Origin: Methanocella sp.
GTDB lineage: Archaea > Thermoproteota > Bathyarchaeia > Bathyarchaeales > Bathycorpusculaceae
Reading direction: 5' to 3'
DNA length: 12,368 nucleotides
NCBI GenBank assembly: GCA_050261115.1
Contig: JBLNCY010000060.1
Span: 1 to 12,368 of the forward strand
The number at the start of each line of letters is the position of its first letter. Position 1 is the first letter of the stretch. Position numbers and translations under genes: made by a program. This document shows, one piece after another, positions 1 through 12,339 of the stretch. Below the pieces are notes generated by a model, which did not search any database, was not told the origin of the DNA, and worked only from the letters and a program-made list of their open reading frames with translations.

Positions 1-779
1 GTAATTTCGCTTTGTGTTAGCATTTCTGTATCTGCACAGACTACGCGAGAGAGCCTTGCTTGTGCTTGGGCGAATGATTTTTCTCGTCCATCAGCCGTTT
101 CTGATGTAAAATCAGCCGCACTGATGTTACCTAAGAGTAGGTGGACATCGCCTGAAGTGGAAAATAGCTCCGAGGAAACCGATGCAACGCCTCCTCGGAT
201 GGGAACAGTATGGGTTATTGTGGCTATGTTTGTCCGTAAACTTCCCGTGTAGACAAGTTCCCCACAAACGAGTTTTTCTAGGTCAGTTTTACCCTTAGCT
301 GCAACCTGTCCTTGGACGATAGGTATTATACTTGTACTTGTACTGCCAACATCTACAATAACTGCGTCTTTGAGGTACTGGCTTATTAGCCATCCAGTAG
401 CTGCCCAATTAGCTGAAGCTACCTCTAGAGGTTTACTTCTAGCTTCCTCAGAAGTAACCAGTTTTCCTGAAGAACTCAAAAAATAACAGGGTGTTCTTGA
501 GAAAACGTGATTTACGCAGGATAATATGCTGCAGACGCCTTCTCGTTTGGTTCGGTATGCATCCGATAACTCTGCAGTCATCGTCACACCCAAAGCATCA
601 AGCCCTGCTGTAACTAGTGTTTCAGCGAGTGCCCTTAGTACGTCACTTAGCTTTTGTGGATTTTTCCATATCGGAAAATATTGCGAGGCTACTTGAACGG
701 TTACCTGACCGTTATTCTCTTGCAGGTATACTGCTTTGGTGTTGGCGCCGCCGATATCGAAGCCTAACACATTGACCAA
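1..779 (-). CDS. mfnF: Hydantoinase/oxoprolinase-family methanofuran biosynthesis protein MfnF; runs off the left edge of the window
   Basis: Not in the ORF track; translated by hand from TTG at 779, with GAGG upstream. Reads MVNVLGFDIGGANTKA...TMTAELSD...ASANWAATGW...DVGSTSTSIIP...GELVYTGSLRTN...TADG...RLSRVVCAD. Lies directly downstream of mfnD. Confidence 0.88.
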   Translation of the reverse strand, partial: MVNVLGFDIGGANTKAVYLQENNGQVTVQVASQYFPIWKNPQKLSDVLRALAETLVTAGLDALGVTMTAELSDAYRTKREGVCSILSCVNHVFSRTPCYFLSSSGKLVTSEEARSKPLEVASANWAATGWLISQYLKDAVIVDVGSTSTSIIPIVQGQVAAKGKTDLEKLVCGELVYTGSLRTNIATITHTVPIRGGVASVSSELFSTSGDVHLLLGNISAADFTSETADGREKSFAQAQARLSRVVCADTEMLTQSEI

Positions 780-794
780 ACTTTTAGCCTCGAC

Positions 795-2015
795 TCATAT
801 GATGCTATGAACGCCCTTTTTAGCTTGTTCTATTTGGAGGCATGCATCCTGCATTGTAGCACCTCTGCTTGTGACTAGGGCGTATGCTGTATCGTCTTGG
901 GCTAAAGGAAAAGGTGGCGAACAAACATATTCTAATTTACCGAGTTTCTGAAAGACTTCGGCGGTGGGTTTAGTTACAGCTACCTTTGCAAAAAAGGCTA
1001 CGTATTGATTGTGGATTTTTTTCGGTAACTTGGCTGAGGTGACAGAGTCTATTATTGCCTGTGCAACATTAAAATCTGCGACTGCATGTAACCCGATAAA
1101 TGAAGTGGTTAACCGGGGATTAACGTCGACAATATACACGTCATTCTCGCTAAAGAGTACATCAACGCCAACGTAGCCGCGTAAACCCGGTATAGATTCA
1201 ATTAGCCTTTCGACAATCGAGCATGCTTTGGCAGAAAGCGGATGCTCCAATGGGACGCAGCCGCCAATATACTGTGACTCGCCTTTTGGGTTGGCGAGCG
1301 CCACTTGTTGTTCGTTGAGGCTTATAGCGACGGCTTTTTTACCGTTAGAAATTACACTGATGCTTGCAGCTAAACCGTTGATGTAGTTTTGTGCAATGAA
1401 TTTTTGATTTGTTGAGTTCTCTTTTAATTTTGCTATGGCCGGTTTGAGTTCGTTTGGTTTTTTAATTATGCTCATTCCAGAGCAGCCAGCGCCATCGACT
1501 GGTTTGAGGACCACTGGATAGGTCAATTCGTTGTTTATTAGCTGTGTAGTTGTTTCTATGTCTGCATTGAAGTCTATTGTCAGCGTTGTTGGTGTGGGTA
1601 CATCGATTTTTGTTAGATGTTCGTAGAGCCTGGTTTTGTCTGACAATCTAGCGATTGCTTCTGAAGAGCAGTTAAGTGAAGCTCGACCTGCTGCTTCTGT
1701 TACTTGGACTAGATTTTGGAGTATCTGCCCTGTCTCGGGTGCAACGATGTAGACCGCATCGTTGATTCTGGCGATATCTCCAATAAACTTCGGGGGCTCT
1801 TCTGCTTGAAGTATAGGCACCGTAAAATCAACCGCTATAGGCGGATTTAATTTTGAGACCCGGTCGTCTAATAGTACGGTCACTTCATGCCCTGCTGCTT
1901 TAAAATCAGACGTGATACTGCGAAGCATAGCATAACCTTCGGCTAGCAGGTTTCGGGGAATATCTTGCCCTATATATCCTCCGCCTGATACATACTCATA
2001 GATGAGGATTTTCAA
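795..2015 (-). CDS. mfnD: ATP-grasp tyramine--L-glutamate ligase (MfnD-like)
   Basis: N-terminal KILIYEYVSGGG...LLAEGYAML; ATP-grasp motifs YPVVLKPVDGAGC, GYVGVD and VDVNPRLTTS. TTG start with GAGGAG upstream; mfn operon context. Confidence 0.88.
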   Translation of the reverse strand: MKILIYEYVSGGGYIGQDIPRNLLAEGYAMLRSITSDFKAAGHEVTVLLDDRVSKLNPPIAVDFTVPILQAEEPPKFIGDIARINDAVYIVAPETGQILQNLVQVTEAAGRASLNCSSEAIARLSDKTRLYEHLTKIDVPTPTTLTIDFNADIETTTQLINNELTYPVVLKPVDGAGCSGMSIIKKPNELKPAIAKLKENSTNQKFIAQNYINGLAASISVISNGKKAVAISLNEQQVALANPKGESQYIGGCVPLEHPLSAKACSIVERLIESIPGLRGYVGVDVLFSENDVYIVDVNPRLTTSFIGLHAVADFNVAQAIIDSVTSAKLPKKIHNQYVAFFAKVAVTKPTAEVFQKLGKLEYVCSPPFPLAQDDTAYALVTSRGATMQDACLQIEQAKKGVHSII

Positions 2016-2068
2016 TGCTGCTCCTCGTATCCCCCATATTATTAGAGCAAGTGACTGGTGAACATACG

Positions 2069-3201
2069 TTAAAGTTTTTCTGTTTCAAGCAAAACCTTCT
2101 GGAACGCTTTGATATGTCTGCGTTTAACATGGGGCATAACTATCACGCGTATACTGCTATATCGGGGGATTGCTGAAACATACCAACCTTGCTGCGATAG
2201 TTTTTTTGTTAGTTCCTGGGGATTTTTGGTCTGGATTGCTAGTATGTTTAGGGTGGGTTCGCATAGAAGTTTAAACCCGACCTTTTTGAGGTTCTTTGCG
2301 AGGGTTTTTGTGTTATTTATGCAGGAGACTACCACTTTCCGGTAGCCTTCAATTCCAAGCGTGTTAATGACTGCCCACGCGGATGCTGCCGAAGCGCCGG
2401 AGCGTGTTCCTACGAAGGTGTACTGCTTGCTAGTGGTTAGATAAGGCGTTTCGGTCTCAAGGTGGCATAGCATCTCGGGGTTGCGTAGAAGAATTCCTCC
2501 GGCTGGGATGGCGGCCATTCCCATTTTGTGTGGATCAACTGTTAGGGTTTTTACGCCTGGAAGTTGAAAGTCGAATTGAGGGGGGTTTCTAAGGAAGGGT
2601 ATGATTAGTCCACCGAATGCTGCATCGACATGCAAATGGATGTTGTGGTTTTGGGCGATTTCTGAGAGTTTATCGATGGGGTCGATGGCGCCTAGTTCGG
2701 CTGTTCCGGCTGTGCCTACGATGGCTATGGTGTTTTGGGAAATGGCATTTTTGACTTCCGCTGGTTTCACTCTGTACTGAATGTCTAGCGGTATATAGAT
2801 GGTTTTTAGGTTGAGTAGGTTGCAGATTTTTTTAAAGGAGAAATGGGCCGATTCTGGGAGGATAATCTCTGGACTTTTTGTTTTTGCAGAGTTCTTGGCG
2901 ACCAGCAGCCCTAAGAGGTTTGCTTCTGTTCCTCCTGAAACGATAAAACCTGTCGAGGATTGATTATGTAGTAAGGTGCTTAGTTGTGCAGTGACTTCCT
3001 GCTCAAGTAAAGTAGCTGCGGGAAATATGGTTGGGTCTCCGAGGTTTGCTTCTAAGAAGAGGTTGTAGGCTTTCTTTGCTATCGGATGCGGTTTTGTGCA
3101 CATCGAACAGAGGATGCGGCCGTCCATATAGCGGTTATCCAGTCTTTGCCTCTGTTTAAGTTCAGCTAACACGTCTCTCTGGGGTTTGGGGTTTGTTTGC
3201 A

Positions 3202-3202
<1 letters not shown>
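2069..3202 (-). CDS. mfnA: PLP-dependent L-tyrosine/L-aspartate decarboxylase
   Basis: Motifs ILCSMCTKPHP, NLGDP, SGGTEAN, HVDAAFGG, PLP-lysine DPHKMG and GTRSGA. Its ATG overlaps the mfnB stop (TAATG). Confidence 0.95.
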
Positions 3203-3924
<722 letters not shown>

Positions 3925-3970: not shown

Positions 3971-4217
3971 CGTTCCTTGGCTGAGTTTCAATCCCCCTCT
4001 GTTCAACTGAATACGCTTGCGGAATGGTCGTTTAAGACAACCGTTGGCGGCAGGCAAATGTGCTGTTGCTCTGCCGAGGACCCTCTTATCTCTTCTTGTT
4101 CTTCTCCAATGTCGGGGAAGTCTTTCTCTTTAATGGGTGCGAACGGTATTCCGTCAGGCTGAGTACTTGGGCCGCAGATTTGTCCATAAAGGTGAAAAAT
4201 AGGGCGTTTTTGAGTCT

Positions 4218-4245
4218 GTATACAAAAGCATCGCCAAAACATAGT
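4218..4245 (+). repeat. 28-bp dispersed motif, copy R1
   Basis: GTATACAAAAGCATCGCCAAAACATAGT; 25/28 identical to R5. Confidence 0.92.
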
Positions 4246-4248
4246 CAT

Positions 4249-4313
4249 CTTTGCCAAAAAACCTCAAATGAGCCCTTAAAATTCGAAATTTAACGAAGCT
4301 TATATAGTCATTC
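4249..4313 (+). repeat. Promoter-like repeat family B, copy B1
   Basis: CTTTGCCAAAAA...TTCGAAATTTAACGAAGCTTATATAGTCATTC; the blocks are collinear with the reverse complement of 12285-12339. Confidence 0.75.
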
Positions 4314-4900
4314 CTCTTCCTCAAAGCCAAATTTGATTGCAAAGACAATAGCTAACCTAAAGTTATAATTAATTGTTGAACCGTACTCCTGCCAGTAACC
4401 CAAAACAAGCCAGAGGCCTCATTTAGCATTAGGCAAACAAAAAGAGTTTGCTCAAAGCCCCCAAAACAGGGACCTTTAGAGGCATTCTGCCGCGCAGGGT
4501 CATAGACAGGTGCTTTGAGGAGGCGCGCCTTGGCTGTTTTTACGCTCTATATGAATACAACTGGGGGTCTAGTGCAATAAGGTCTGCAGGTGCAAGCGGT
4601 TTTTTGAGTTGTTGCCTATTGAACTTTGGCGGCACTGCCAATTTTTGTTAGAGGCGGATGGCGAAAGATTTTCGAATGTTCACTTTTTACATTATTAAGT
4701 TAAATAATCCAGAGGGCATTAGTTAAATTTTAGATATTAAATTAAACTGGCGGTGTCTTACTCATAACTGTTGCCCTTCTGAGCCCCGAAATAGGGAAAA
4801 CTAACCTCAAGCGACCGTTGCTTTGGAAAAAAATTTATTCACAAGCCCGCATAAGCAGTAATTGTCAAAGAGTATTTTAATGAACCAAAAGGCGACGTAA

Positions 4901-5629
4901 TTGAACAAGAACATTACCTTAAATGGAAATGACGCTCTCCTCGTAACCGACATACAAAACGACTTTTTACCTGGTGGAGCTCTGCCGGTTACTGATGGCG
5001 ATAAAATAATTCCAGCCATCAACAACTACATTGAACGATTTGAAGCTGCAAAAGCACATGTGATAGCTTCACGGGACTGGCACCCCCCAAATCACATATC
5101 CTTCAAAAGTCAAGGCGGACCTTGGCCACCCCATTGCATACAGGAAACTGAAGGCGCAAAGTTTAGCACCAAACTAAAACTACCTGATCACATAGTAGTC
5201 ATTTCTAAGGCTACGGACCCCAAACACGAAGCTTACAGCGCTTTCGATAACACAAACCTAAACAACGAACTAGACCGTCTCGGAATTAAACGGTTATTTG
5301 TTGCTGGTTTAGCGACTGATTATTGTGTAGTAAATACCGTCTTGGATGCTAGAAAACTTGGGTATGACACTTTTGTGCTTATGGACGCAACCTTGGGCAT
5401 TAACGTTAACCCAGGAGACGTTGACCGCGCAGTTAAGGCGATGACGGAAAGCGGTGCAAGACTAGTCACGATCGCAGACTTTGCGGAACCTGAAGACAAG
5501 CTGCCCATAACAGAAGCTACGCCGGATGCATTTGCTGAGAAACCTTCAATGCTTGCTGACGCAAAAAAGAAAGCAAAAATGCGATCCAAAGGAGTCAATA
5601 AGCGACTTAAAACCGAGAGACGCGGTTAG
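4901..5629 (+). CDS. pncA: Nicotinamidase/pyrazinamidase (isochorismatase superfamily) with a C-terminal extension
   Basis: Motifs DIQNDFLPGGAL, RDWHPPNHISF, WPPHC, ISKA...EAYSAF and GLATDYCV (catalytic Cys). Confidence 0.93.
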   Translation: MNKNITLNGNDALLVTDIQNDFLPGGALPVTDGDKIIPAINNYIERFEAAKAHVIASRDWHPPNHISFKSQGGPWPPHCIQETEGAKFSTKLKLPDHIVVISKATDPKHEAYSAFDNTNLNNELDRLGIKRLFVAGLATDYCVVNTVLDARKLGYDTFVLMDATLGINVNPGDVDRAVKAMTESGARLVTIADFAEPEDKLPITEATPDAFAEKPSMLADAKKKAKMRSKGVNKRLKTERRG

Positions 5630-5632
5630 CAC

Positions 5633-5663
5633 TCGAACTGCTGCGAAGCTTATATAATCATGC
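5633..5663 (+). repeat. Promoter-like repeat family B, copy B2
   Basis: TCGAACTGCTGCGAAGCTTATATAATCATGC, starting a few bases after the pncA stop. Confidence 0.7.
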
Positions 5664-6025
5664 AATAAATCGTCTTTTTACACCATTTGTTTAGGCATTA
5701 AACGTTTGAGCGGACCGTAACCTACGCTATGTTGGCACAAAATGACGGCAAAATCAGTCAAGTGACCAAAAAATTTGCTAGTTCATGCCATGGTTCGTGA
5801 GTTTGAAGCCCCTTTAGAGGCGCACGGTCGGTTCTTTTGGCACGCGTGGTAGCACGAAAGCCAGGCGAACAGACAATATTTACAATAAAATGCTAAAAAT
5901 AACCCTATACGCCCATATGATTGTTAGATTAATGCTAAATTACCCCATGGACGACGCTATTATGCGCCTACGAAAGTCGAATCGGAAAAGCCGAACAAAA
6001 CCGAAAATCAAAAACCGGCGGATGC

Positions 6026-6439
6026 CTAAATGCCCAGCACTTGCACGATAAGCATTCTTTCACGGGGGTGTACATCTGTCTCAACGTAAAAAAGCGATTG
6101 CCAGGTCCCAAAAGCCACCCTACCGTCAATAAGCGGCAAAGTCTTATCAGGTGAAAGCACCATAGACCGTAAATGCGAATGAGCATTAGACGGATGTTGA
6201 TAACCTCGCCGTCTAGGGACAAGTTCTTCAAGAAAAACCCTTATGTCCTCCAGTAGTGCCGCATCATTTTCGTTTAAAATTAGCACTCCGGTGGCATGTG
6301 GTGCAAAGACATGAACGATGCCATTTTTTATGTTTGAGTTGGATGCTATTTCTTGTATCTCGTCAGATAACTCGATAAAATCAATTTCGCCTCGGGTTGA
6401 GAACTTGAGCGTCTTGTTTACTACTTTGAAGCTACACAT
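6026..6439 (-). CDS. yjbQ: YjbQ/UPF0047 family protein (secondary thiamine-phosphate synthase family)
   Basis: Motifs PHATGVLILNEND, NAHSHLRS and GTWQS; typical length (137 aa). Confidence 0.92.
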   Translation of the reverse strand: MCSFKVVNKTLKFSTRGEIDFIELSDEIQEIASNSNIKNGIVHVFAPHATGVLILNENDAALLEDIRVFLEELVPRRRGYQHPSNAHSHLRSMVLSPDKTLPLIDGRVAFGTWQSLFYVETDVHPRERMLIVQVLGI

Positions 6440-6499
6440 AAAACCGCCAACTCATCTATAGGGTTGTTTTGTTGAAAAACCTTTCTAGATTGCAACTTG

Positions 6500-6527
6500 A
6501 GTGTGTTTTGGTGATGCTTTTGTATAC
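6500..6527 (-). repeat. 28-bp dispersed motif, copy R2
   Basis: Reverse complement reads GTATACAAAAGCATCACCAAAACACACT; 26/28 identical to R5. Confidence 0.92.
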
Positions 6528-6596
6528 CATGACGCCATGGCGGCCGAATCTGGCCTGAGAGCATTTGCCTGCTACTGTTTTATGCCAATCACACAG

Positions 6597-6607
6597 ACTT
6601 TAAAGGC
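6597..6607 (+). promoter_or_regulatory. Putative TATA element of the zinc-finger gene
   Basis: ACTTTAAAGGC about 50 bp upstream of GTG 6653; identical to the 11-mer upstream of mfnB. Confidence 0.45.
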
Positions 6608-6652
6608 TCAAAATAAAGTGAATCATGAGCTTCGTTATAGGGGAGTTTTAAG

Positions 6653-6871
6653 GTGAAACCAAAAAAAGCAGTTGACCGTGAAAGATACACCGAAATATAT
6701 ACAGATGACATAGAGAACGCGCTTGCAGACTACGACGATGTGACACGACGACCTATTCCAGGCGGCTATGAATGTGGGGGCTGCGGCAAGTTTTTTGATA
6801 CTATAGAAGCCCGTGAACTGCACTGGCGCACTGTACACTACCGGGCTCAAGAAGTTTCAGTACCTATGTAG
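6653..6871 (+). CDS. Small C2H2-type zinc-finger protein
   Basis: YECGGCGKFFDTIEARELHWRTVH fits C-x2-C-x12-H-x4-H with conserved aromatic positions. SD-like AGGGGAG precedes the GTG and a T-rich tract follows the stop. Confidence 0.75.
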   Translation: MKPKKAVDRERYTEIYTDDIENALADYDDVTRRPIPGGYECGGCGKFFDTIEARELHWRTVHYRAQEVSVPM

Positions 6872-6954
6872 TTTCCGTTTTTAAATAGCTGTAGCCTCTT
6901 TTGGTTGTCACATATCAATAATAACAATTTTTTCTATCTTCCATCCGATGTTTT

Positions 6955-8154
6955 ATGGCAAAAATTGAAACTCTTGAAGTATCGACCCCTACCCGTACAG
7001 AAGCGAACGTGTTTAAACCCTTTGAACTCCAAGGACGCCCCATAGAAGACCAATTCATGAATTGGAATACAATGATAAAACCTCCCTACGACAAGGACAA
7101 AGTCGACGCCTACACCCGAACCCGAGTAATACTAATGAACGGTATAGAAAACAACGCAGTCATAACATCTCATGCAATGGCCCGAATGACAGAAAATGAT
7201 GAGATAAAACGCAAGTTGGCAATCATCAGACGAGCAGATTCACAGCACCAAGAAACAGTCGATTGGCTTAACCCGGGCAACCAAAGCATACTAGAAACGA
7301 CCATCGGTTATGAGCAAGTGGCTGTGGACTTAACTGCGAATTTGGCTAAGAATGAGCCCGAGGATTATTTCCGGCAAGTGCTGGATTTTGCGTTGCTAGA
7401 GGACTTTGACCACCTCTATAGGTACAGCATGCTCATGAAGATGCTCGAAGACAAGGACGCCGAAAAGATTGTGCAGGGCAAAACTGAAATAAAGCCCGGG
7501 CGACCCACAAGCGTCGAGCACCGCCACCCCGACGACGAAATGAGACTCCACTTTGACAAGAACTCGGTTCATGTGAAGTCTTGGATGAACTACTTCACGA
7601 TTGTATCAGGTGAGCAGCAAACCATGCTCTACTACCGAACCCATGGCGCCAACTTGGAAAACGATCTAGCACGAAAGTTATATGCCGAAATCGCAGAAAT
7701 CGAGGAACAACATGTCTCACAATACGAAAATATCGGAGACCCCACCGCGACCCCGCTACAGATAGCAACCCTCCTTCAGCTAAACGAGGCCTACAATTAC
7801 TATTCGGCAATGCAAACTGAAACCGATCAGCGTATACGCAGCATCTGGGCAGAGTTTTGTGCACATGAAATCGAGCACTTTAACATGTGTAACGAATTGA
7901 TGCTGAAGTACGAGAAAATGGATATTCGCGACTTGATAAAGGATGACAAAGTAGACCCGCTGATCGTATTTGAACCCAACAAAGAATACGTCAACAAAGT
8001 GCTAGAAGAACAAGTGAACCTTAGGCCGTATAATATGCAGTTTGTCCCTGAAGATCAACTACCTTCTGACTGGAAGTCCTTTGGCTACCAGAACAGGGTT
8101 AACGAGGGCGGGGTGCCTTCAGAGATAGTTGAGGAACGCTATCGCGAACGTTAA
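6955..8154 (+). CDS. Tandem ferritin-like (di-metal carboxylate) protein of unknown function
   Basis: 399-aa acidic ORF with four E/Q-x29-[DE]xxH units ending in DSQH, DFDH, EEQH and EIEH. Confidence 0.8.
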   Translation: MAKIETLEVSTPTRTEANVFKPFELQGRPIEDQFMNWNTMIKPPYDKDKVDAYTRTRVILMNGIENNAVITSHAMARMTENDEIKRKLAIIRRADSQHQETVDWLNPGNQSILETTIGYEQVAVDLTANLAKNEPEDYFRQVLDFALLEDFDHLYRYSMLMKMLEDKDAEKIVQGKTEIKPGRPTSVEHRHPDDEMRLHFDKNSVHVKSWMNYFTIVSGEQQTMLYYRTHGANLENDLARKLYAEIAEIEEQHVSQYENIGDPTATPLQIATLLQLNEAYNYYSAMQTETDQRIRSIWAEFCAHEIEHFNMCNELMLKYEKMDIRDLIKDDKVDPLIVFEPNKEYVNKVLEEQVNLRPYNMQFVPEDQLPSDWKSFGYQNRVNEGGVPSEIVEERYRER

Positions 8155-8171
8155 GGCACAGACACCCCCCA

Positions 8172-8183
8172 CCTTTTCTTTCT
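8172..8183 (+). terminator. Possible archaeal T-rich terminator
   Basis: CCTTTTCTTTCT about 18 bp after the ferritin-like stop; a T8 run follows at 8231-8238. Confidence 0.35.
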
Positions 8184-8239
8184 GGCAAAAGCGATCATGC
8201 CCTAGAGGCACTGGTCTATCTACGACTTACTTTTTTTTA

Positions 8240-8270
8240 ACTGTGGGTTTGGGTGATGCTTTTGTATTAC
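8240..8270 (-). repeat. 28-bp dispersed motif, copy R3 (with small insertions)
   Basis: Reverse complement reads GTAATACAAAAGCATCACCCAAACCCACAGT. Confidence 0.88.
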
Positions 8271-9298
8271 GACTGTACATGAACTTTTCGGGAACTTTTT
8301 GACTTGCAACGCCTAAGCGTTGGTTGCGCTGGTTGCATTCCACTCTCAACCAAACATAGTTTAATGCACCACCGTTCAGGCAGCAAAAAATGGAGGCTCA
8401 AAAAACAAGGGAGATGCCTCTTAGAGTTCAGCCGAATTGCCACTGCTAAAATATCATGGGACGTATTATCGAGATGTCGGATAGGATTCAAATAACCGCC
8501 AAGACACCTGAGGACGCCCAATCACAAAGTTGGCGGCATGATTTAGAAAAAAGACCCTAGCGCTCTTAGTAGCGGAATCTATTTGGGTTAACTCTGTCTC
8601 TGAACTCGATGTTTTTTCGATCAAGGTATTTTGCCAAAATAACGATTTAATCAGGCTTTTTTGCGATAAAAGGTTAGAATTTTGGTCTGTATGGTTTCGA
8701 AACGCTTTAGGCAAAAAACAACACAACATTTTTTCACCAAACACGGAATCAAAAACCCCCAATATGGCCCTTTTACACAAAATAGGCATGATTTGAGCTT
8801 TTTAGGTAGTTCCCTAAGAGACTGGCATGGGGAATATCGGCGCCTCATATAAGTACCTACGAAAATCTCCATGCGAAGCAAAACTCGACTTTTTCGATTG
8901 CCCTTCGCTACAGTCCACGCATTTCTAGCGGTTGGAGGCGGGTCTGTAAAACTTTGCCGTTTGCGTACCTCAAACTTAGAAGCCAATTAATGCTGCTGAG
9001 GGGCGTGATTTGTTTGGTGATTTGAAAGGTGTTTGGTGGTTGCGTTTTGTTTGCTGGCGAGTGCAGGGTTTGTGAATCTGGGGTTGGTTTGCTTGGTGGG
9101 TGCGAGTTTTGTCGGCTCTACTGTGTTAGCGGCGATTCGTTAGGGGCCAATTGTGCTGCGTTTATGTAGAGCTTTAGCGTCATTATTTTTAATTGTTGAA
9201 TGTTACGCGATTACTGACCAGTTGTATTGGTGACCACCGTATTGTTTTTGTTGGGTATGTTCACCAGCGGGCGCCAGCTCCACCAGTCCACCCGCCCC

Positions 9299-9326
9299 GT
9301 ATACGAAAGCATCACCCAAACACAGT
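9299..9326 (+). repeat. 28-bp dispersed motif, copy R4
   Basis: GTATACGAAAGCATCACCCAAACACAGT; 27/28 identical to R5. Confidence 0.92.
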
Positions 9327-9397
9327 AATTGCGCCCAACAGTGCAACAATTTTTTAATTAAACCAGCCGAAAAATTATGCTAAAAGGAGGATAGCAG

Positions 9398-9835
9398 TTG
9401 AGCACTGAAGAGGAACGCATACGACTAAGACGTTGGCGCAAGCGAGGCTTCTACAGCGAAACCGCTCTAGTCAAACTCCTCCAGAAGAAAGGCTACTTTG
9501 CCGTCCGAGTCCCAGTCAGCAACCCAAGCCTCAACCCCCTCCCAGACATCATCGCACGAAGAGGCCCGCACCTCTATGCATTCGAGGTTAAGAACGCCAC
9601 ATACTACGCCTACTATCCCCTACCCCAAATAGACAAACTCTTCCGTTTCCTAGACCAATTCATTCCCTCAGGCAATGAGTACAAGCATGCAGTGGTGGCG
9701 GCGCATCTGGGGAAACGGTGGCTCTTCCGCGAGATCAGTTGGCGGGACTGGGAGAAACAAAAGATCCCTGATAAGATCCGAATTCTCAAGCGGGACCGTG
9801 GGAACTTAAACATAGAAACCTGTTATCTAGAGTAG
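9398..9835 (+). CDS. hjc: Archaeal Holliday junction resolvase, Hjc-like PD-(D/E)XK nuclease
   Basis: RG..SE..LVKLLQKKGYFAVRVPVS...PLPDIIA...LYAFEVK. Strong SD AGGAGG precedes the TTG; 145 aa. Confidence 0.78.
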   Translation: MSTEEERIRLRRWRKRGFYSETALVKLLQKKGYFAVRVPVSNPSLNPLPDIIARRGPHLYAFEVKNATYYAYYPLPQIDKLFRFLDQFIPSGNEYKHAVVAAHLGKRWLFREISWRDWEKQKIPDKIRILKRDRGNLNIETCYLE

Positions 9836-9907
9836 CACAGGCATCTACCCCAAAATTATTATCCACCTACAACCCAAACGATCTATATCAGAGGACAGCG
9901 ATACCGA

Positions 9908-10535
9908 GTGGCTTATAGACATTAAAAGCCCAACTAAAGCCTACGCGTATAGATCAAAAAAATCGGAGTTCTAAAAGGCCTAACCCTCAAAATCCCCAAA
10001 GTCCAATTTGTGGTCCTCTGCGACCCCTCAGGCTCAGGCAAAACTACGCTGCTAAACACATAAGCGGATCGACCGCCCCCCACACACGGCGAAGTCGCGC
10101 GGTTGCCGGAGAAAACTTGACTGGTCAACCGAAAGAGTTCCTCGCTGATTTTCGATGTGTCCACATAGGCCATGTATTCCAAACGTACAATCCGGTTTCA
10201 ACTCACACGGTAGCGGAAAAAGTTGCGTTTCCCCTGGAATGAAAGACCAGAATTCTCGTGTTACCGATTTGGTTGAAATGGTTGGTTGCAGCATTTTAGA
10301 CATTTTCCATCGCTACTATCGGAGGGAGCAACAGCGAGTGGCTTTTGCATGTACCTTGGCAAATGACCCAAGCCAATTTTTCCGATGAACCAAAAGACAG
10401 CCTTGATGCAAAGAACGCAGACAAGAATGTTCAAGTGCTTCAGCCGCTAAAATGCCAGGGAAAGAGCATCATTGTATCCGTAACATCTGTGGCTTAGCTT
10501 ACCAAGTTGTACCTTAAAGGTGACAAACTGGCAAG
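9908..10535 (+). pseudogene. Degraded LolD/MacB-type ABC transporter ATP-binding gene
   Basis: Fragments lie in shifting frames: VLKGLTLKIPK..FVVLCDPSGSGKTTLLN (Walker A, frame stops at 10061-10063), DRPPTHGEV, GHVFQTYN, TVAEKVAFP, EQQRVAFACTLANDP, DEPKDSLDAKN, GKSIIV and LYLKGDKL. Boundaries are approximate. Confidence 0.85.
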
Positions 10536-10536
10536 T

Positions 10537-10861
10537 GCAATCTGCCTTTTCAGCTACATGATGCCGTCAACAAATGAGCAACGTCATGAATTTGCTGCCC
10601 TACGCTCAGTTGGGGCACGCCCTAAGCTGATTATTAGCATTTGTGCTATTGAGAGTTTGCTGGTTTTGCTGTCGAGTTTAGGTATTGGGCTCTCATTTGG
10701 GGTTATAACGACGATACTGATACTGATGGCGGACCTATTTCCTACGTTTCCCTATTGACCATTGTGACTTGTATGGGTGTGGCTGTGGCGTGATGTTTAT
10801 TATAAGCCTCTACCCAGCGATTAAACTCTCCAAAACCAGTATCCTACAGATCAACCGCTAA
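10537..10861 (+). pseudogene. C-terminal fragment of an FtsX/MacB-type ABC permease
   Basis: EQRHEFAALRSVGARPKLI...ESLLVLLSSLGIGLSFG, then after a frame break MFIISLYPAIKLSKTSILQINR* (stop 10859-10861). Confidence 0.8.
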
Positions 10862-11551
10862 AGTCCGGAAGGTTTTAGGGTAGAACTTTACCGCGTCGAT
10901 ATGCAGAGGGAGTTGAGATATGAAGTCTTGCAGTGAGAGCACAGGTACTATGGGGACTTCGTAGTAGAATTTGTAGGCACCCGGCATAAGCGAGAGCACT
11001 GCAGGAACAAATTTGGCTCTCTCCCAAATGGTACAATCCAGGTTTAATTTGGCGTTAGGGAGTGCGTCAGCAAGCGCTGCTGTGCGTTTGGCTTGTTCCT
11101 CAACGATTTTCCGCAGTTCTGATGCGCGAAGCGCGTGCTGCCATCGCTTGCAATCAATGCAAACGACCAGGGGTTTTCTGCAGCCAACCACGTCTATCTC
11201 GTATCTTCGACCGCCGTGTTTGAAGCGGACATTGTTGTAGACTGTGTAGCTGTTGGTTTTTAGGGCTTCAGCGGCGATTGCTTCGAATTCTTGCCAGCAG
11301 AGGTTGTCGGCGATTTTTTGCAAATCTGCGCCTAAAGTGGCTGCCTTGATGGCGATTTTTAGGCGGTCTTCACTATCGACTTGGATAGTGTCTTCTTTGA
11401 GATTAATGAGGTTATCAGATTGCATTTTTTGTAGCAAACTGTTGCAAACACTAGAGGGCAAGTGGGCGTCAATATTAACATCTTTAGTTAAAGCCGCTCC
11501 GTTTTTGGTTAGTTTGAGGACTGAAATTAGCATATTGCCCTCAAAACTCAC
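10844..11551 (-). CDS. PD-(D/E)XK nuclease (Mrr-cat/NERD/YraN-like) with a probable N-terminal winged-helix domain
   Basis: WQEFEAIAAEAL...YEIDVVG...VVCIDCKRW. Preferred start is GTG at 11551 (AGGGGG upstream) rather than TTG at 11569. The winged-helix assignment is inference. Confidence 0.75.
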   Translation of the reverse strand: MSFEGNMLISVLKLTKNGAALTKDVNIDAHLPSSVCNSLLQKMQSDNLINLKEDTIQVDSEDRLKIAIKAATLGADLQKIADNLCWQEFEAIAAEALKTNSYTVYNNVRFKHGGRRYEIDVVGCRKPLVVCIDCKRWQHALRASELRKIVEEQAKRTAALADALPNAKLNLDCTIWERAKFVPAVLSLMPGAYKFYYEVPIVPVLSLQDFISQLPLHIDAVKFYPKTFRTLAVDL

Positions 11552-11634
11552 ACAAATGGCCCCCTGCAAATTGCTGCCGTTGGAGCAAAAAATGGCTTTC
11601 TAGCGCTTAAATTGAGCACATATTGGGGGCTGCC

Positions 11635-11662
11635 GTATACAAAAGCATCACCCAAACACAGT
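11635..11662 (+). repeat. 28-bp dispersed motif, copy R5 (consensus)
   Basis: GTATACAAAAGCATCACCCAAACACAGT. Confidence 0.92.
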
Positions 11663-12284
11663 TCACCAAACCCAAACCGCCAAGACCCAATAACCATGTC
11701 CACGGGGCACCCTACGGCAAATTTACGTGAAGTCGCAAAAATAACCTTTCCTCCGATTTCATGGAAAACTTGCCAAGGATGCGGAAAATCGGAGCATCGC
11801 CGATTGTCTTCGATGCCCGTAATGGCTTACTCTGGCATAAGTCATGGAACATGTTATTAAAGATTGTTTTTTTGATTGTTGCAGTGGCAGCATTTTAACT
11901 GTTTAGTGTAAAAAGCACAAATTCGTTTCTTTTTCGAACAATCTTCGAAGGGCACTGAAGAATCTTTGCCAAAAAAGAGGGTGATCCCGAGATAGCCAAA
12001 GGCAAACCTGCTTGTCTGCGGGACCCTTGAACCTACAGCGAAGCAACAGAACCGCCTATTTGGTGCAAGACGCATTGAATTTTGGTTGATGAGGGATTAA
12101 AATGGGTTTTTGCGGTTGTTTGGTGGTGTTTTTTGGTTCGATTTTTGCATTTTGGAGAACCTAAAAATGTTTTGACATCCGTCATACGGCGCCTGAGGCA
12201 CCCTCGAGTTCACAGCCCAACCGCTAAAGTGCCAAAAAACAAACTGGCCACCAACAACCGCAGCCCTTAAAGCTGGAAAGCTCT

Positions 12285-12339
12285 GAATGATTATATATGC
12301 TTCGAACAATTTCGAACAAATTGGCTGTTTTTGGCAAAG
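12285..12339 (-). repeat. Promoter-like repeat family B, copy B3
   Basis: Reverse complement reads CTTTGCCAAAAACAGCCAATTTGTTCGAAATTGTTCGAAGCATATATAATCATTC. Confidence 0.75.

Follow-up and report, generated by a model that had tools for sequence, protein, structure and literature searches.

What does a short DNA motif do that recurs between the gene modules of an uncultured archaeon? The question is raised by a stretch of 12,368 nucleotides from Methanocella sp. (order Bathyarchaeales, family Bathycorpusculaceae; assembly GCA_050261115.1, contig JBLNCY010000060.1), hereafter called the window, which is the whole of contig C60 of a 2.15-Mb, 95%-complete genome. Five intergenic copies of a 28-bp motif had been reported there in a preliminary description, made from the letters of the window alone, which proposed that they could be recombination sites defining gene cassettes, solo transposon ends or footprints, or genome-wide protein-binding sites. 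We find that the motif is conserved among related genomes, that it occupies recurrent positions between genes, and that it coincides with breakpoints of gene order. Our favoured reading, to which we give a probability of roughly 0.45, is that the motif is a binding site for a predicted regulator of genome-maintenance and metabolite-repair genes. Binding of this protein would have a regulatory effect on the genes, and recombination between the copies would be a by-product.

Five copies of the motif lie between genes of the window

Scanning the window for the 28-mer with at most three mismatches returned four copies, at 4218(+), 6500(-), 9299(+), and 11635(+); none of 200 dinucleotide-preserving shuffles of the window gave a match (chance expectation, 0). 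The fifth copy, at 8240-8270(-), came from a repeat search and is 92% identical to the 6500 copy over 25 nt. All five are intergenic and lie between credible genes. The copies (R1 to R5) and two associated features are listed below (ORF, open reading frame).

R1, 4218..4245, plus strand: 5' (GTATAC) side toward the start of the methanofuran (mfn) operon, 293 nt off; on the 3' side, 37 nt to a TCG-N8-CGAA/TATA promoter-like box, then about 600 nt free of ORFs, then pncA
R2, 6500..6527, minus strand: in the divergent spacer between the UPF0047 gene (start codon 60 nt from the 3' end) and the C2H2 zinc-finger gene (125 nt from the 5' end)
R3, 8240..8270, minus strand: 87 nt past the stop of a 399-aa ferritin-like gene
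R4, 9299..9326, plus strand: hjc starts 71 nt downstream; 23 nt past the motif lies a T/A-rich TATA-like box
R5, 11635..11662, plus strand: 5' side 65 nt from the start of an Mrr/NERD-type nuclease gene; 3' side toward an ORF-poor spacer of about 460 nt
9164..9298, plus strand: extended flank on the 5' side of R4, GTATTG..TTCACCAGC..CCAG, from the alignment with relatives
12126..12150, minus strand: weak candidate for a degenerate copy, 72% identical to R2 and convergent with R5

In relatives, a second convergent copy lies at the far end of the spacer equivalent to that of R5. R3 differs from the other copies by small indels, namely an extra window base at 8267 and a 2-nt indel in the tail relative to R5. 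We compared the locus with public sequencing runs in the form of assembled Logan contigs, three DNA runs from three studies and one RNA run of low depth. Base 8267 is absent from all four, and without it R3 begins with the canonical GTATAC. The gapped look of R3 is therefore partly due to this extra base, in addition to the 2-nt difference in the tail.

Alignment of the copies with 60-nt flanks gave no similarity beyond the motif, and no hairpin better than those of shuffled sequences was predicted in any of the five (0 to -1.1 kcal/mol, z -0.8 to +1.1). The number and positions of the copies, their unrelated flanks, and the lack of a hairpin were thus borne out, and the gene content agrees with the modules that had been drawn between them: the mfn operon, pncA with UPF0047 (yjbQ), the zinc-finger gene with the ferritin-like gene, an ORF-poor stretch of about 1 kb, and the block from hjc to the nuclease gene.

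The motif is a conserved, asymmetric element of about 30 bp

A logo of 169 unique copies gave the consensus YC-GTATACAAAAGCATC-A(A/C)C(A/C)AAACACA-N-T, often followed by TTT. There is a C-bias at positions -2/-1 and a T-bias at +29 to +31, and information falls to about 0 at -3 and past +31. The edges are as sharp as had been described, but these biases extend the element beyond exactly 28 bp, to about 30 bp. The total amounts to about 38 to 40 bits, with the share of positions 1 to 15 inflated because copies were selected on them. The tail (positions 16 to 26), which was outside the selection, holds 0.6 to 2.1 bits per position, and C18 is present in 168 of the 169 copies. As judged from this alignment, the motif is under purifying selection.

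The motif is strand asymmetric and has no inverted arms; only GTATAC is palindromic, in agreement with the preliminary description. GTATAC does not behave as an avoided restriction site (311 observed versus 314 expected). Within the motif, ACAAAAG (positions 5 to 11) and ACAAAAC (17 to 23) form a direct repeat of the heptad ACAAAAS, 12 nt from start to start. Two direct heptads with a 12-nt period suggest head-to-tail binding of two subunits or domains. We thus propose that one sequence-specific protein would recognize the asymmetric site of about 30 bp in double-stranded DNA, two of its subunits or domains presumably contacting the heptads head to tail.

An exact-string search with both strands of the core found nothing in 8.1 million open papers and 0.36 million preprints, the subscription literature, ISfinder, and databases of CRISPR (clustered regularly interspaced short palindromic repeats) repeats lying outside its scope. 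A word search on conserved intergenic motifs in this archaeal group likewise returned nothing relevant in those parts of the literature that were accessible. The Rfam scan of the window gave 0 matches at E up to 1. Within these sources, the statement that the motif is not a described element stands. Its poor fit to known repeat classes was also confirmed. A CRISPR repeat was rejected on the spacings of 1 to 2.3 kb, the mixed orientations, and the genes between the copies; a repetitive extragenic palindrome (REP) or miniature inverted-repeat transposable element (MITE) on the lack of a hairpin, the low number of about 10 copies per genome, and the unrelated flanks; and attC or dif on the lack of a hairpin or inverted recombinase arms.

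Copies are kept across four families of one order

The window's genome was scanned with the 15-base core at up to 2 mismatches. This gave 15 matches compared to 6 for a reversed control, and weak genome matches are therefore unreliable. Four further copies have a convincing tail or context (about 10 copies in 2.1 Mb):

C38:46712, plus strand: upstream of nnr; the 28th base is the last base of contig C38
C6:72428, minus strand: 48 nt upstream of mazG, beside the gene of the PolD large subunit, and 74 nt from a divergent glyoxalase/bleomycin-resistance-like gene
C31:62288, plus strand: 31 nt upstream of rubrerythrin; a flavodiiron protein gene adjoins
C56:4049, minus strand: weak; between convergent genes

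In the family, the window variant (25 bases, up to 3 mismatches) matched 46 of 101 genomes and 34 of 70 genera, and the reversed control matched none in any genome. In the class, the family consensus (20 bases, up to 2 mismatches) matched 72 of 301 sampled genomes, distributed as follows:

f1 (own family): 45 of 48 genomes
f2: 14 of 16
f5 (motif starts GGATAC): 10 of 12
f6: 1 of 1
f20: 1 of 5
f3, 0 of 2; f4, 0 of 6; f19, 0 of 71; f30, 0 of 43; all other families, 0

With its matches concentrated in four families of one order, the element is old and has been kept across those families.

Genomes hold about 3 to 10 copies, most of them in one neighbourhood of about 20 kb. Near-complete relatives have 3 to 7, mostly within 4 to 25 kb of one contig, and the smallest sets (G008 and G021) consist of three copies around LonB only. 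The protein-binding part of the third earlier proposal is thus the reading that we favour, but the distribution is not genome-wide. Away from the main cluster, genomes of the window's genus share a single orthologous copy upstream of mazG beside PolD (6 genomes) and another upstream of glutamate dehydrogenase (gdh)-GINS-MCM (5 genomes), and an SSB-like gene stands beside a copy in two genomes of one genus. Copies are more scattered in four genomes (G098, G051, G030, and G065), where the neighbouring genes include, besides the SSB-like ones, those of macro-domain, MntP, nitroreductase, CPBP protease, GNAT, LeuA/LeuB, and Alba proteins; a catalase gene lies 715 nt from one such copy. Near a contig end of G098 (L057, contig C38 of that genome), a rolling-circle Rep-like gene (REP_ORF2-G2P, 1171-1872) lies about 1.1 kb from a copy.

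Being short, dispersed, and sharply bounded, and lying at the borders of modules, the motif could be the relic of a mobile element, that is, a MITE, a solo terminal repeat, or an excision footprint. We find this hardly credible. The copies occupy orthologous positions across four families and are subject to purifying selection, they do not form paired inverted ends around a transposase, they lack target duplications, and they are few; moreover, 2.9 million viral contigs gave 0 motif matches. The solo transposon end or footprint proposed at the outset was accordingly not supported.

Copies mark transcription-unit boundaries and often precede promoter-like boxes

Fourteen related loci of 10 to 20 kb were mapped. 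Five genera share a common order, given here in two parts (M, motif copy; arrowheads, orientation):

<Macro <LysE [M>] <Tsr3 <Nnr [M>] (<Lrp) PncA> <UPF0047 [M<] <LonB [M<]
[M>] Hjc> ABC> FtsX> <Nuc [M>] ~550 nt [M<] ... <MobA [M<] <Mrp-type ParA

Each transcription-unit boundary has about one copy, whatever the orientation of the genes, and the copies at hjc, UPF0047/GNAT, mobA, and nnr keep their positions across genera. Upstream of LonB, two divergent copies are separated by about 250 to 280 bp, and an inverted pair with a spacing of about 245 to 280 bp is the most widely kept arrangement. On the 5' side of the two outward-facing copies next to LonB there is an extended unit of about 160 to 190 nt, TAGGCTAAA .. 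ATTTT .. GGTG .. GTATTAC .. TCACCAG .. CACC .. motif, of which the blocks are conserved and the spacers are not; RNAalifold on 24 such units predicted 0 pairs and found no covariation. R4 carries this extended unit, although LonB itself is gone from the window. A ribosomal RNA gene between inverted copies was considered and discarded, the gene there being LonB.

The neighbours of 85 copies could be called, with orthologous positions counted repeatedly, so that the counts are not independent. Thirty of the 85 lie between divergent genes, with 5' ends on both sides; 25 are in tandem spacers with the next gene start on the motif's 3' side, 19 in tandem spacers with the motif reversed, and 11 between convergent genes. 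At least one flanking gene 5' end was thus present at 74 of the 85. A divergent gene on the motif's 5' side often starts 55 to 130 nt off. Past the 3' end of the motif we called, by eye and without statistics, boxes resembling the B recognition element and TATA box (BRE/TATA-like). They lie about 6 nt past the motif at one hjc and, in three genomes, at mobA; the distance is about 14 nt for mazG, 16 to 26 nt for most hjc and GNAT genes, and about 60 to 75 nt for UPF0047. Since the box lies downstream of the motif, the motif would be situated upstream of the core promoter and not be transcribed from it. Because the box usually follows within 6 to 26 nt on the 3' side and a divergent start is often found on the 5' side, we read the motif as an upstream operator or activator site, a function that it would serve in promoter-bearing spacers. 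The copies stand next to BRE/TATA-like boxes of a recurring set of genes, within the main cluster and beyond it, and this placement resembles that of a regulon site.

The genes that the site would coordinate are hjc, the Mrr/NERD nuclease gene, LonB, UPF0047/GNAT, nnr-tsr3, pncA, the macro-domain gene, and mobA, and further mazG beside PolD, gdh-GINS-MCM, the SSB-like gene, and rubrerythrin. Judging by their annotations, we take the common theme to be genome maintenance, protein quality control, and control of metabolite and redox damage.

The positions of the copies bear on three other readings. In the first, the motif would have its function in RNA and be a shared leader or trailer, a processing site, or a small-RNA target. 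Its strict strand asymmetry, its sharp bounds, and the T-run after it would suit such a role, and one contig of the low-depth RNA run, in which the ORF-poor stretches are uncovered, reads through R3. Yet copies occur in both orientations relative to neighbouring genes, a BRE/TATA-like box stands between motif and start codon at several genes, and fold, covariation, and Rfam match are all missing (on seven related loci, Rfam found one tRNA and nothing else). An action on RNA appears highly improbable to us.

In the second, the motif would delimit transcription units as a bound roadblock or insulator, or as a bidirectional terminator, and any pausing of replication forks there would make the sites prone to breakage and thereby account for the rearrangements. 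About one copy per boundary irrespective of gene orientation suits such an element. The 3' end of the motif abuts stop codons at Tsr3 (0 to 9 nt; seven genomes) and at the Lrp-like gene (15 nt), and its median distance to the stop of a convergent gene is 26 nt (30 copies). The bottom strand has two T4 runs and the top strand is then T-rich at +28 to +31; oligo-T composition is typical of archaeal terminators. Asymmetric, high-information sites in low copy number also resemble Tus-Ter and RTP-Ter. However, oligo-T termination needs no 28 conserved bases, most boundaries in the genome have no motif, and the copies do not fall into two opposed groups of orientation. Furthermore, we know of no such roadblock system in archaea. 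We regard a boundary element as improbable.

In the third, the cluster would be a replication origin built of elements like the origin recognition box (ORB), or a chromosome-partition site. The widely kept inverted pair and the single copies beside PolD, GINS-MCM, and SSB-like genes are in line with this. In G008, however, the three copies lie at 297 to 301 kb of a 1.46-Mb contig on which the two Orc1/Cdc6 genes are found at 1080 and 1361 kb, and neither the cumulative GC skew nor the gene strand has a turning point within ±200 kb of the cluster. The copies are spread over several spacers instead of being packed around one AT-rich stretch, and the ParA-like neighbour is of the Mrp/NBP35 type. 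We hold the chance of an origin or partition function to be extremely small.

Gene order changes at the copies

In describing the rearrangements, we use UP for the flank next to GTATAC and DOWN for the opposite one. Three differences in gene order between genera can each be explained by crossovers confined to copies, in which every UP flank remains an UP flank, and every reconstructed rearrangement between genera has a copy at its junction. In loci L035 to L038, the orientation of the LonB segment is opposite to that in the common order, as expected from recombination between the inverted copies at its two ends. In genus g3 (L041 and L042, compared to L043), the junctions LysE/Tsr3, Nnr/PncA, and LonB/UPF0047 have become LysE/PncA-side, Nnr/UPF0047, and LonB/Tsr3, which is explained by excision of Tsr3-Nnr between two direct copies and its inverted re-insertion at a third. 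In G030, the Hjc-to-nuclease block joins PncA through a copy.

Within the window's genus, the mapped genomes display at least five module orders, and nearly all junctions that differ have a copy. Six genomes (G016, G361, G241, G298, G273, and G246) have the Nnr-Tsr3-LysE-Macro block next to PncA, and two (G278 and G262) have it beyond the nuclease gene. Other genes replace PncA-UPF0047 in G195. The zinc-finger gene, the 399-aa gene, or both stand beside UPF0047 in four genomes of the genus; in the window these two genes lie between two direct copies, whereas G016 has one copy and neither gene, a difference for which crossovers at copies again suffice. The window has a copy between UPF0047 and the zinc-finger gene, but G246 and G278 have it between PncA and UPF0047. 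Through R1, the window joins the mfn operon to PncA. The Nnr-side flanks are 75 to 82% identical up to 2 to 5 nt from the motif where the other flank is unrelated, a weak test, as 3'-side flanks are poorly conserved even under the same gene order. Three junctions are exceptions in having no copy, namely LonB/Hjc in L035, EamA/PncA in L034, and LysE/Tsr3 in contig C38.

On contig C38 of the window's genome (locus L052), the genes Macro-LysE-Tsr3-Nnr are accompanied by a motif copy (6713-6740) whose last base is also that of the contig. Because this block is situated beyond the nuclease gene in two genomes of the genus, C38 may be the right-hand neighbour of the window. Among the matches listed for the window variant, 9 of 113 lie less than 1 kb from a contig start, by a rough estimate no more than contigs of 10 to 20 kb would give. 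The three public DNA runs contain the locus at 99% identity, in pieces, and the breaks and loose ends of their contigs coincide exactly with motif edges, at 4215 and 4246, at 6527 (two runs), at 11633 and 11635, and at 11662. At one loose end the Nnr-side flank of C38 recurs. These ends may represent other copies, or relatives that share just 28 to 30 bases. No deletion or inversion joint between two window copies was seen in these runs at the contig level; the three joints listed are short pieces at other repeats.

These data bring in the main competitor of the operator reading, a dedicated site-specific recombination in which an unlinked recombinase would pair copies in parallel and exchange strands within the motif, so that units bounded by the motif invert, excise, and re-insert. 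It accounts for crossovers confined to the copies with halves that keep their sides, for the variable module order within the window's genus, and for Nnr-side homology that reaches the motif. The end of C38 would fit a population that branches there, and high information content and strict asymmetry suit a recombination site. We nevertheless consider it unlikely, although worth keeping in view. The 14 annotated loci contain no recombinase gene closer to the cluster than about 8 kb, and the tyrosine recombinases of five genomes are unlinked to it, the nearest being about 10 kb away beside a primase-like gene. The motif lacks the inverted binding arms of tyrosine and serine recombinase sites, and no joint between copies was seen in the public runs at the contig level. 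Nor are copies generally homogenized within genomes: identity of the tails is 0.572 within genomes and 0.607 between genera at the same position, and tails are shared only by the two LonB-flanking copies of one clade. Concerted evolution was rejected on these values. Stable single orthologous copies upstream of particular genes are not cassette-like, the cargo consists of housekeeping genes, and rare homologous recombination between 28-bp repeats would give equal, polarity-keeping junctions. More broadly, it seems quite unlikely that a dedicated system breaks or exchanges DNA at the copies, be it a recombinase whose sites are asymmetric and free of hairpins or a tightly bound polar barrier at which breaks are provoked.

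The proposal of a cassette-defining recombination site thus held in part. The comparison of synteny breakpoints with copies supports it, since copies with preserved polarity lie at the rearranged junctions between genera and at most differences within the genus; it is weakened by the missing nearby recombinase, inverted arms, and recombinant joint at the contig level. By the criterion of the preliminary description, it also counts against cassettes that gene order is kept across the copies in several genera.

Candidate partner genes were also considered. In G278, a tyrosine recombinase gene lies about 0.5 to 1.3 kb from a lone copy and is part of an insert of 5.4 kb that is bounded by 30-nt direct repeats different from the motif (L087, contig C6 of G278; 5071-5100 and 10472-10501, 93% identical), 360 nt from that copy. 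The insert holds a tyrosine integrase gene in two pieces and several ORFs without Pfam matches. Linkage of integrases to the motif was therefore rejected, those of the five genomes being unlinked or part of another element. The nuclease was discarded as a motif-specific partner, as 239 of 301 class genomes have it, motif-less families included, and the 399-aa protein was discarded as a recombinase, its sole matches being weak ones to ferritin-like proteins.

Genes and side features of the window

The remaining features of the window are as follows:

3-3924, minus strand: methanofuran (mfn) operon
Between R1 and R2: pncA (isochorismatase family) and a convergent UPF0047/YjbQ gene
Between R2 and R3: 72-aa C2H2 zinc-finger gene and 399-aa gene
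8270-9298: ORF-poor stretch of about 1 kb, no credible gene
Between R4 and R5: hjc, remnants of an ABC/FtsX transporter, and the Mrr/NERD-type nuclease gene
4282-4313 (plus strand), 5633-5664 (plus strand), and 12284-12316 (minus strand): TCG-N8-CGAA/TATA boxes

The ORF-poor stretch at 8270-9298 is the place of a 745- to 778-aa LonB and its 520- to 740-nt leader in relatives, and it keeps a conserved unit that is found past the LonB 3' end in relatives. A LonB of this type was not found in the window's genome, in which the best match has 26% identity and lies elsewhere, nor at the locus in several genomes of the genus. Where LonB is present, a very conserved block (TCGAAG-N-CGAA ... CATGGAGATTTTCGACAGTTTTTATATGAGG ... 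TCCATG; L034, about 9750-9830, minus strand) lies about 330 nt upstream of it, with a short inverted repeat that encloses a TATA-like box. A second promoter-like box (TTTTGAAATAAC..CTTTAATTG) is closer to the LonB start codon. We consider this block a possible regulated promoter, or possible leader RNA, of LonB.

Between hjc and the nuclease gene, the region 9900-10800 contains a decayed ABC-transporter ATPase and FtsX/MacB-type permease, of which an 83-aa FtsX fragment and frame-broken ATPase pieces are left; relatives have intact 229-aa and approximately 620-aa genes there. A putative ORF of 56 codons with a CxxC pair, 11693-11863(+), starts 30 nt past R5. No tRNA was found in a scan of the window. 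Single-base indels at 8231, 8267, 8657, and 12098 set the window apart from all three public DNA runs, two of the four also differing from the RNA run; small errors of assembly at homopolymer-like runs are their probable cause.

The window holds a second repeat, TCG-N8-CGAA abutting a strong TATA box (..CGAAGCTTATATA.TCAT). The composite occurs three times in the 2.15-Mb genome, always on the window's contig, and each occurrence is followed by 360 to 600 nt without a credible ORF; these downstream stretches have no mutual homology. The box of MsvR, a redox regulator of methanogens, has been published as TTCGN7-9CGAA (PMC3729527), and the second repeat beside its TATA box fits this motif. However, a V4R-domain protein was not found in this 95%-complete genome, and the 28-bp motif itself has no such inverted repeat.

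Discussion

We have described an intergenic element that stands beside a recurring set of genes, often upstream of promoter-like boxes, and at which gene order has changed repeatedly. In the operator reading, both properties would have one origin. The copies are the only long near-identical sequences of the neighbourhood, and recombination between them would invert, move, or insert the transcription units that they delimit; they would look like cassette borders because such recombination has shifted these units.

Several observations weigh against an operator. No orientation rule is apparent, a gene 5' end lying on the 3' side of 55 copies and on the 5' side of 49, and the distance from the motif to the TATA box, as called by eye, ranges from about 6 to about 75 nt. 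Eleven of the 85 copies lie between convergent genes, and several abut stop codons (Tsr3 and Lrp). The information content of about 38 to 40 bits is about twice what some 6 to 10 sites in a genome of 2 Mb would need, an unusual surplus for a plain operator. Finally, the gene order by the copies is unusually fluid within one genus, which a mere operator does not predict. The missing orientation and distance rule, the twofold information, and the high level of rearrangement within the genus leave room for a recombination site or for a barrier or boundary element.

Gene regulation and chromosome dynamics are almost unexplored in this order of uncultured archaea, and a near letter-perfect element of 30 bp in four families offers a concrete handle and a bait for its binding protein. 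The candidate regulon would combine DNA repair and replication (hjc, the nuclease, the SSB-like protein, GINS-MCM, and mazG beside PolD) with quality control by LonB and with the repair of NAD (nicotinamide adenine dinucleotide) and metabolites (nnr, pncA, and the macro-domain gene). The motif also marks a chromosomal district in which the order of modules varies even within one genus, nearly always at copies. If these changes were catalysed, they would reveal a new kind of cassette system in archaea, one that shuffles housekeeping units in the manner of integrons and shufflons but has neither attC hairpins nor a linked integrase. If they were accidental, they would provide a natural example of short regulatory repeats steering genome rearrangement. 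A recombination system or a boundary element would, if true, be more novel than an operator.

How does the motif compare with known systems? Archaeal ORBs are conserved, polar elements of 20 to 36 bp that are found as inverted pairs. Unlike them, the motif lies far from orc1/cdc6, is scattered over spacers without a skew signal, and has no sequence likeness to the ORB core. Tus-Ter and RTP-Ter are bacterial fork barriers with asymmetric sites of 23 to 30 bp, 5 to 10 per genome, each bound by one dedicated protein. Asymmetry, high information content, and a few copies per genome are shared with the motif; two opposed orientation groups are not, the GC skew around the cluster has no turning point, and to our knowledge no analogue of Tus or RTP is known in archaea. 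Integron attC and shufflon sfx sites are, like the motif, short sites at module borders where order and orientation vary and polarity is kept. In contrast to them, the motif has no imperfect inverted repeat that could form a hairpin and no adjacent integrase, its orientations are mixed, its cargo consists of housekeeping genes, and stable single copies stand upstream of particular genes.

The GvpE activator site of haloarchaeal gas-vesicle promoters spans 20 nt in two 8-nt portions and lies upstream of the BRE of divergent promoters (PMC2241852). Sequence and lineage are unrelated to those of the motif, which is longer (28 to 30 bp), has an extra invariant GTATAC end, and stands at a variable distance from the TATA box. 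It would serve at least a dozen genes, lies sometimes between convergent genes, and has a binder that is only predicted. Nevertheless, the two heptads, the position upstream of BRE/TATA-like boxes, and the frequent placement in divergent spacers resemble the architecture described for the GvpE site.

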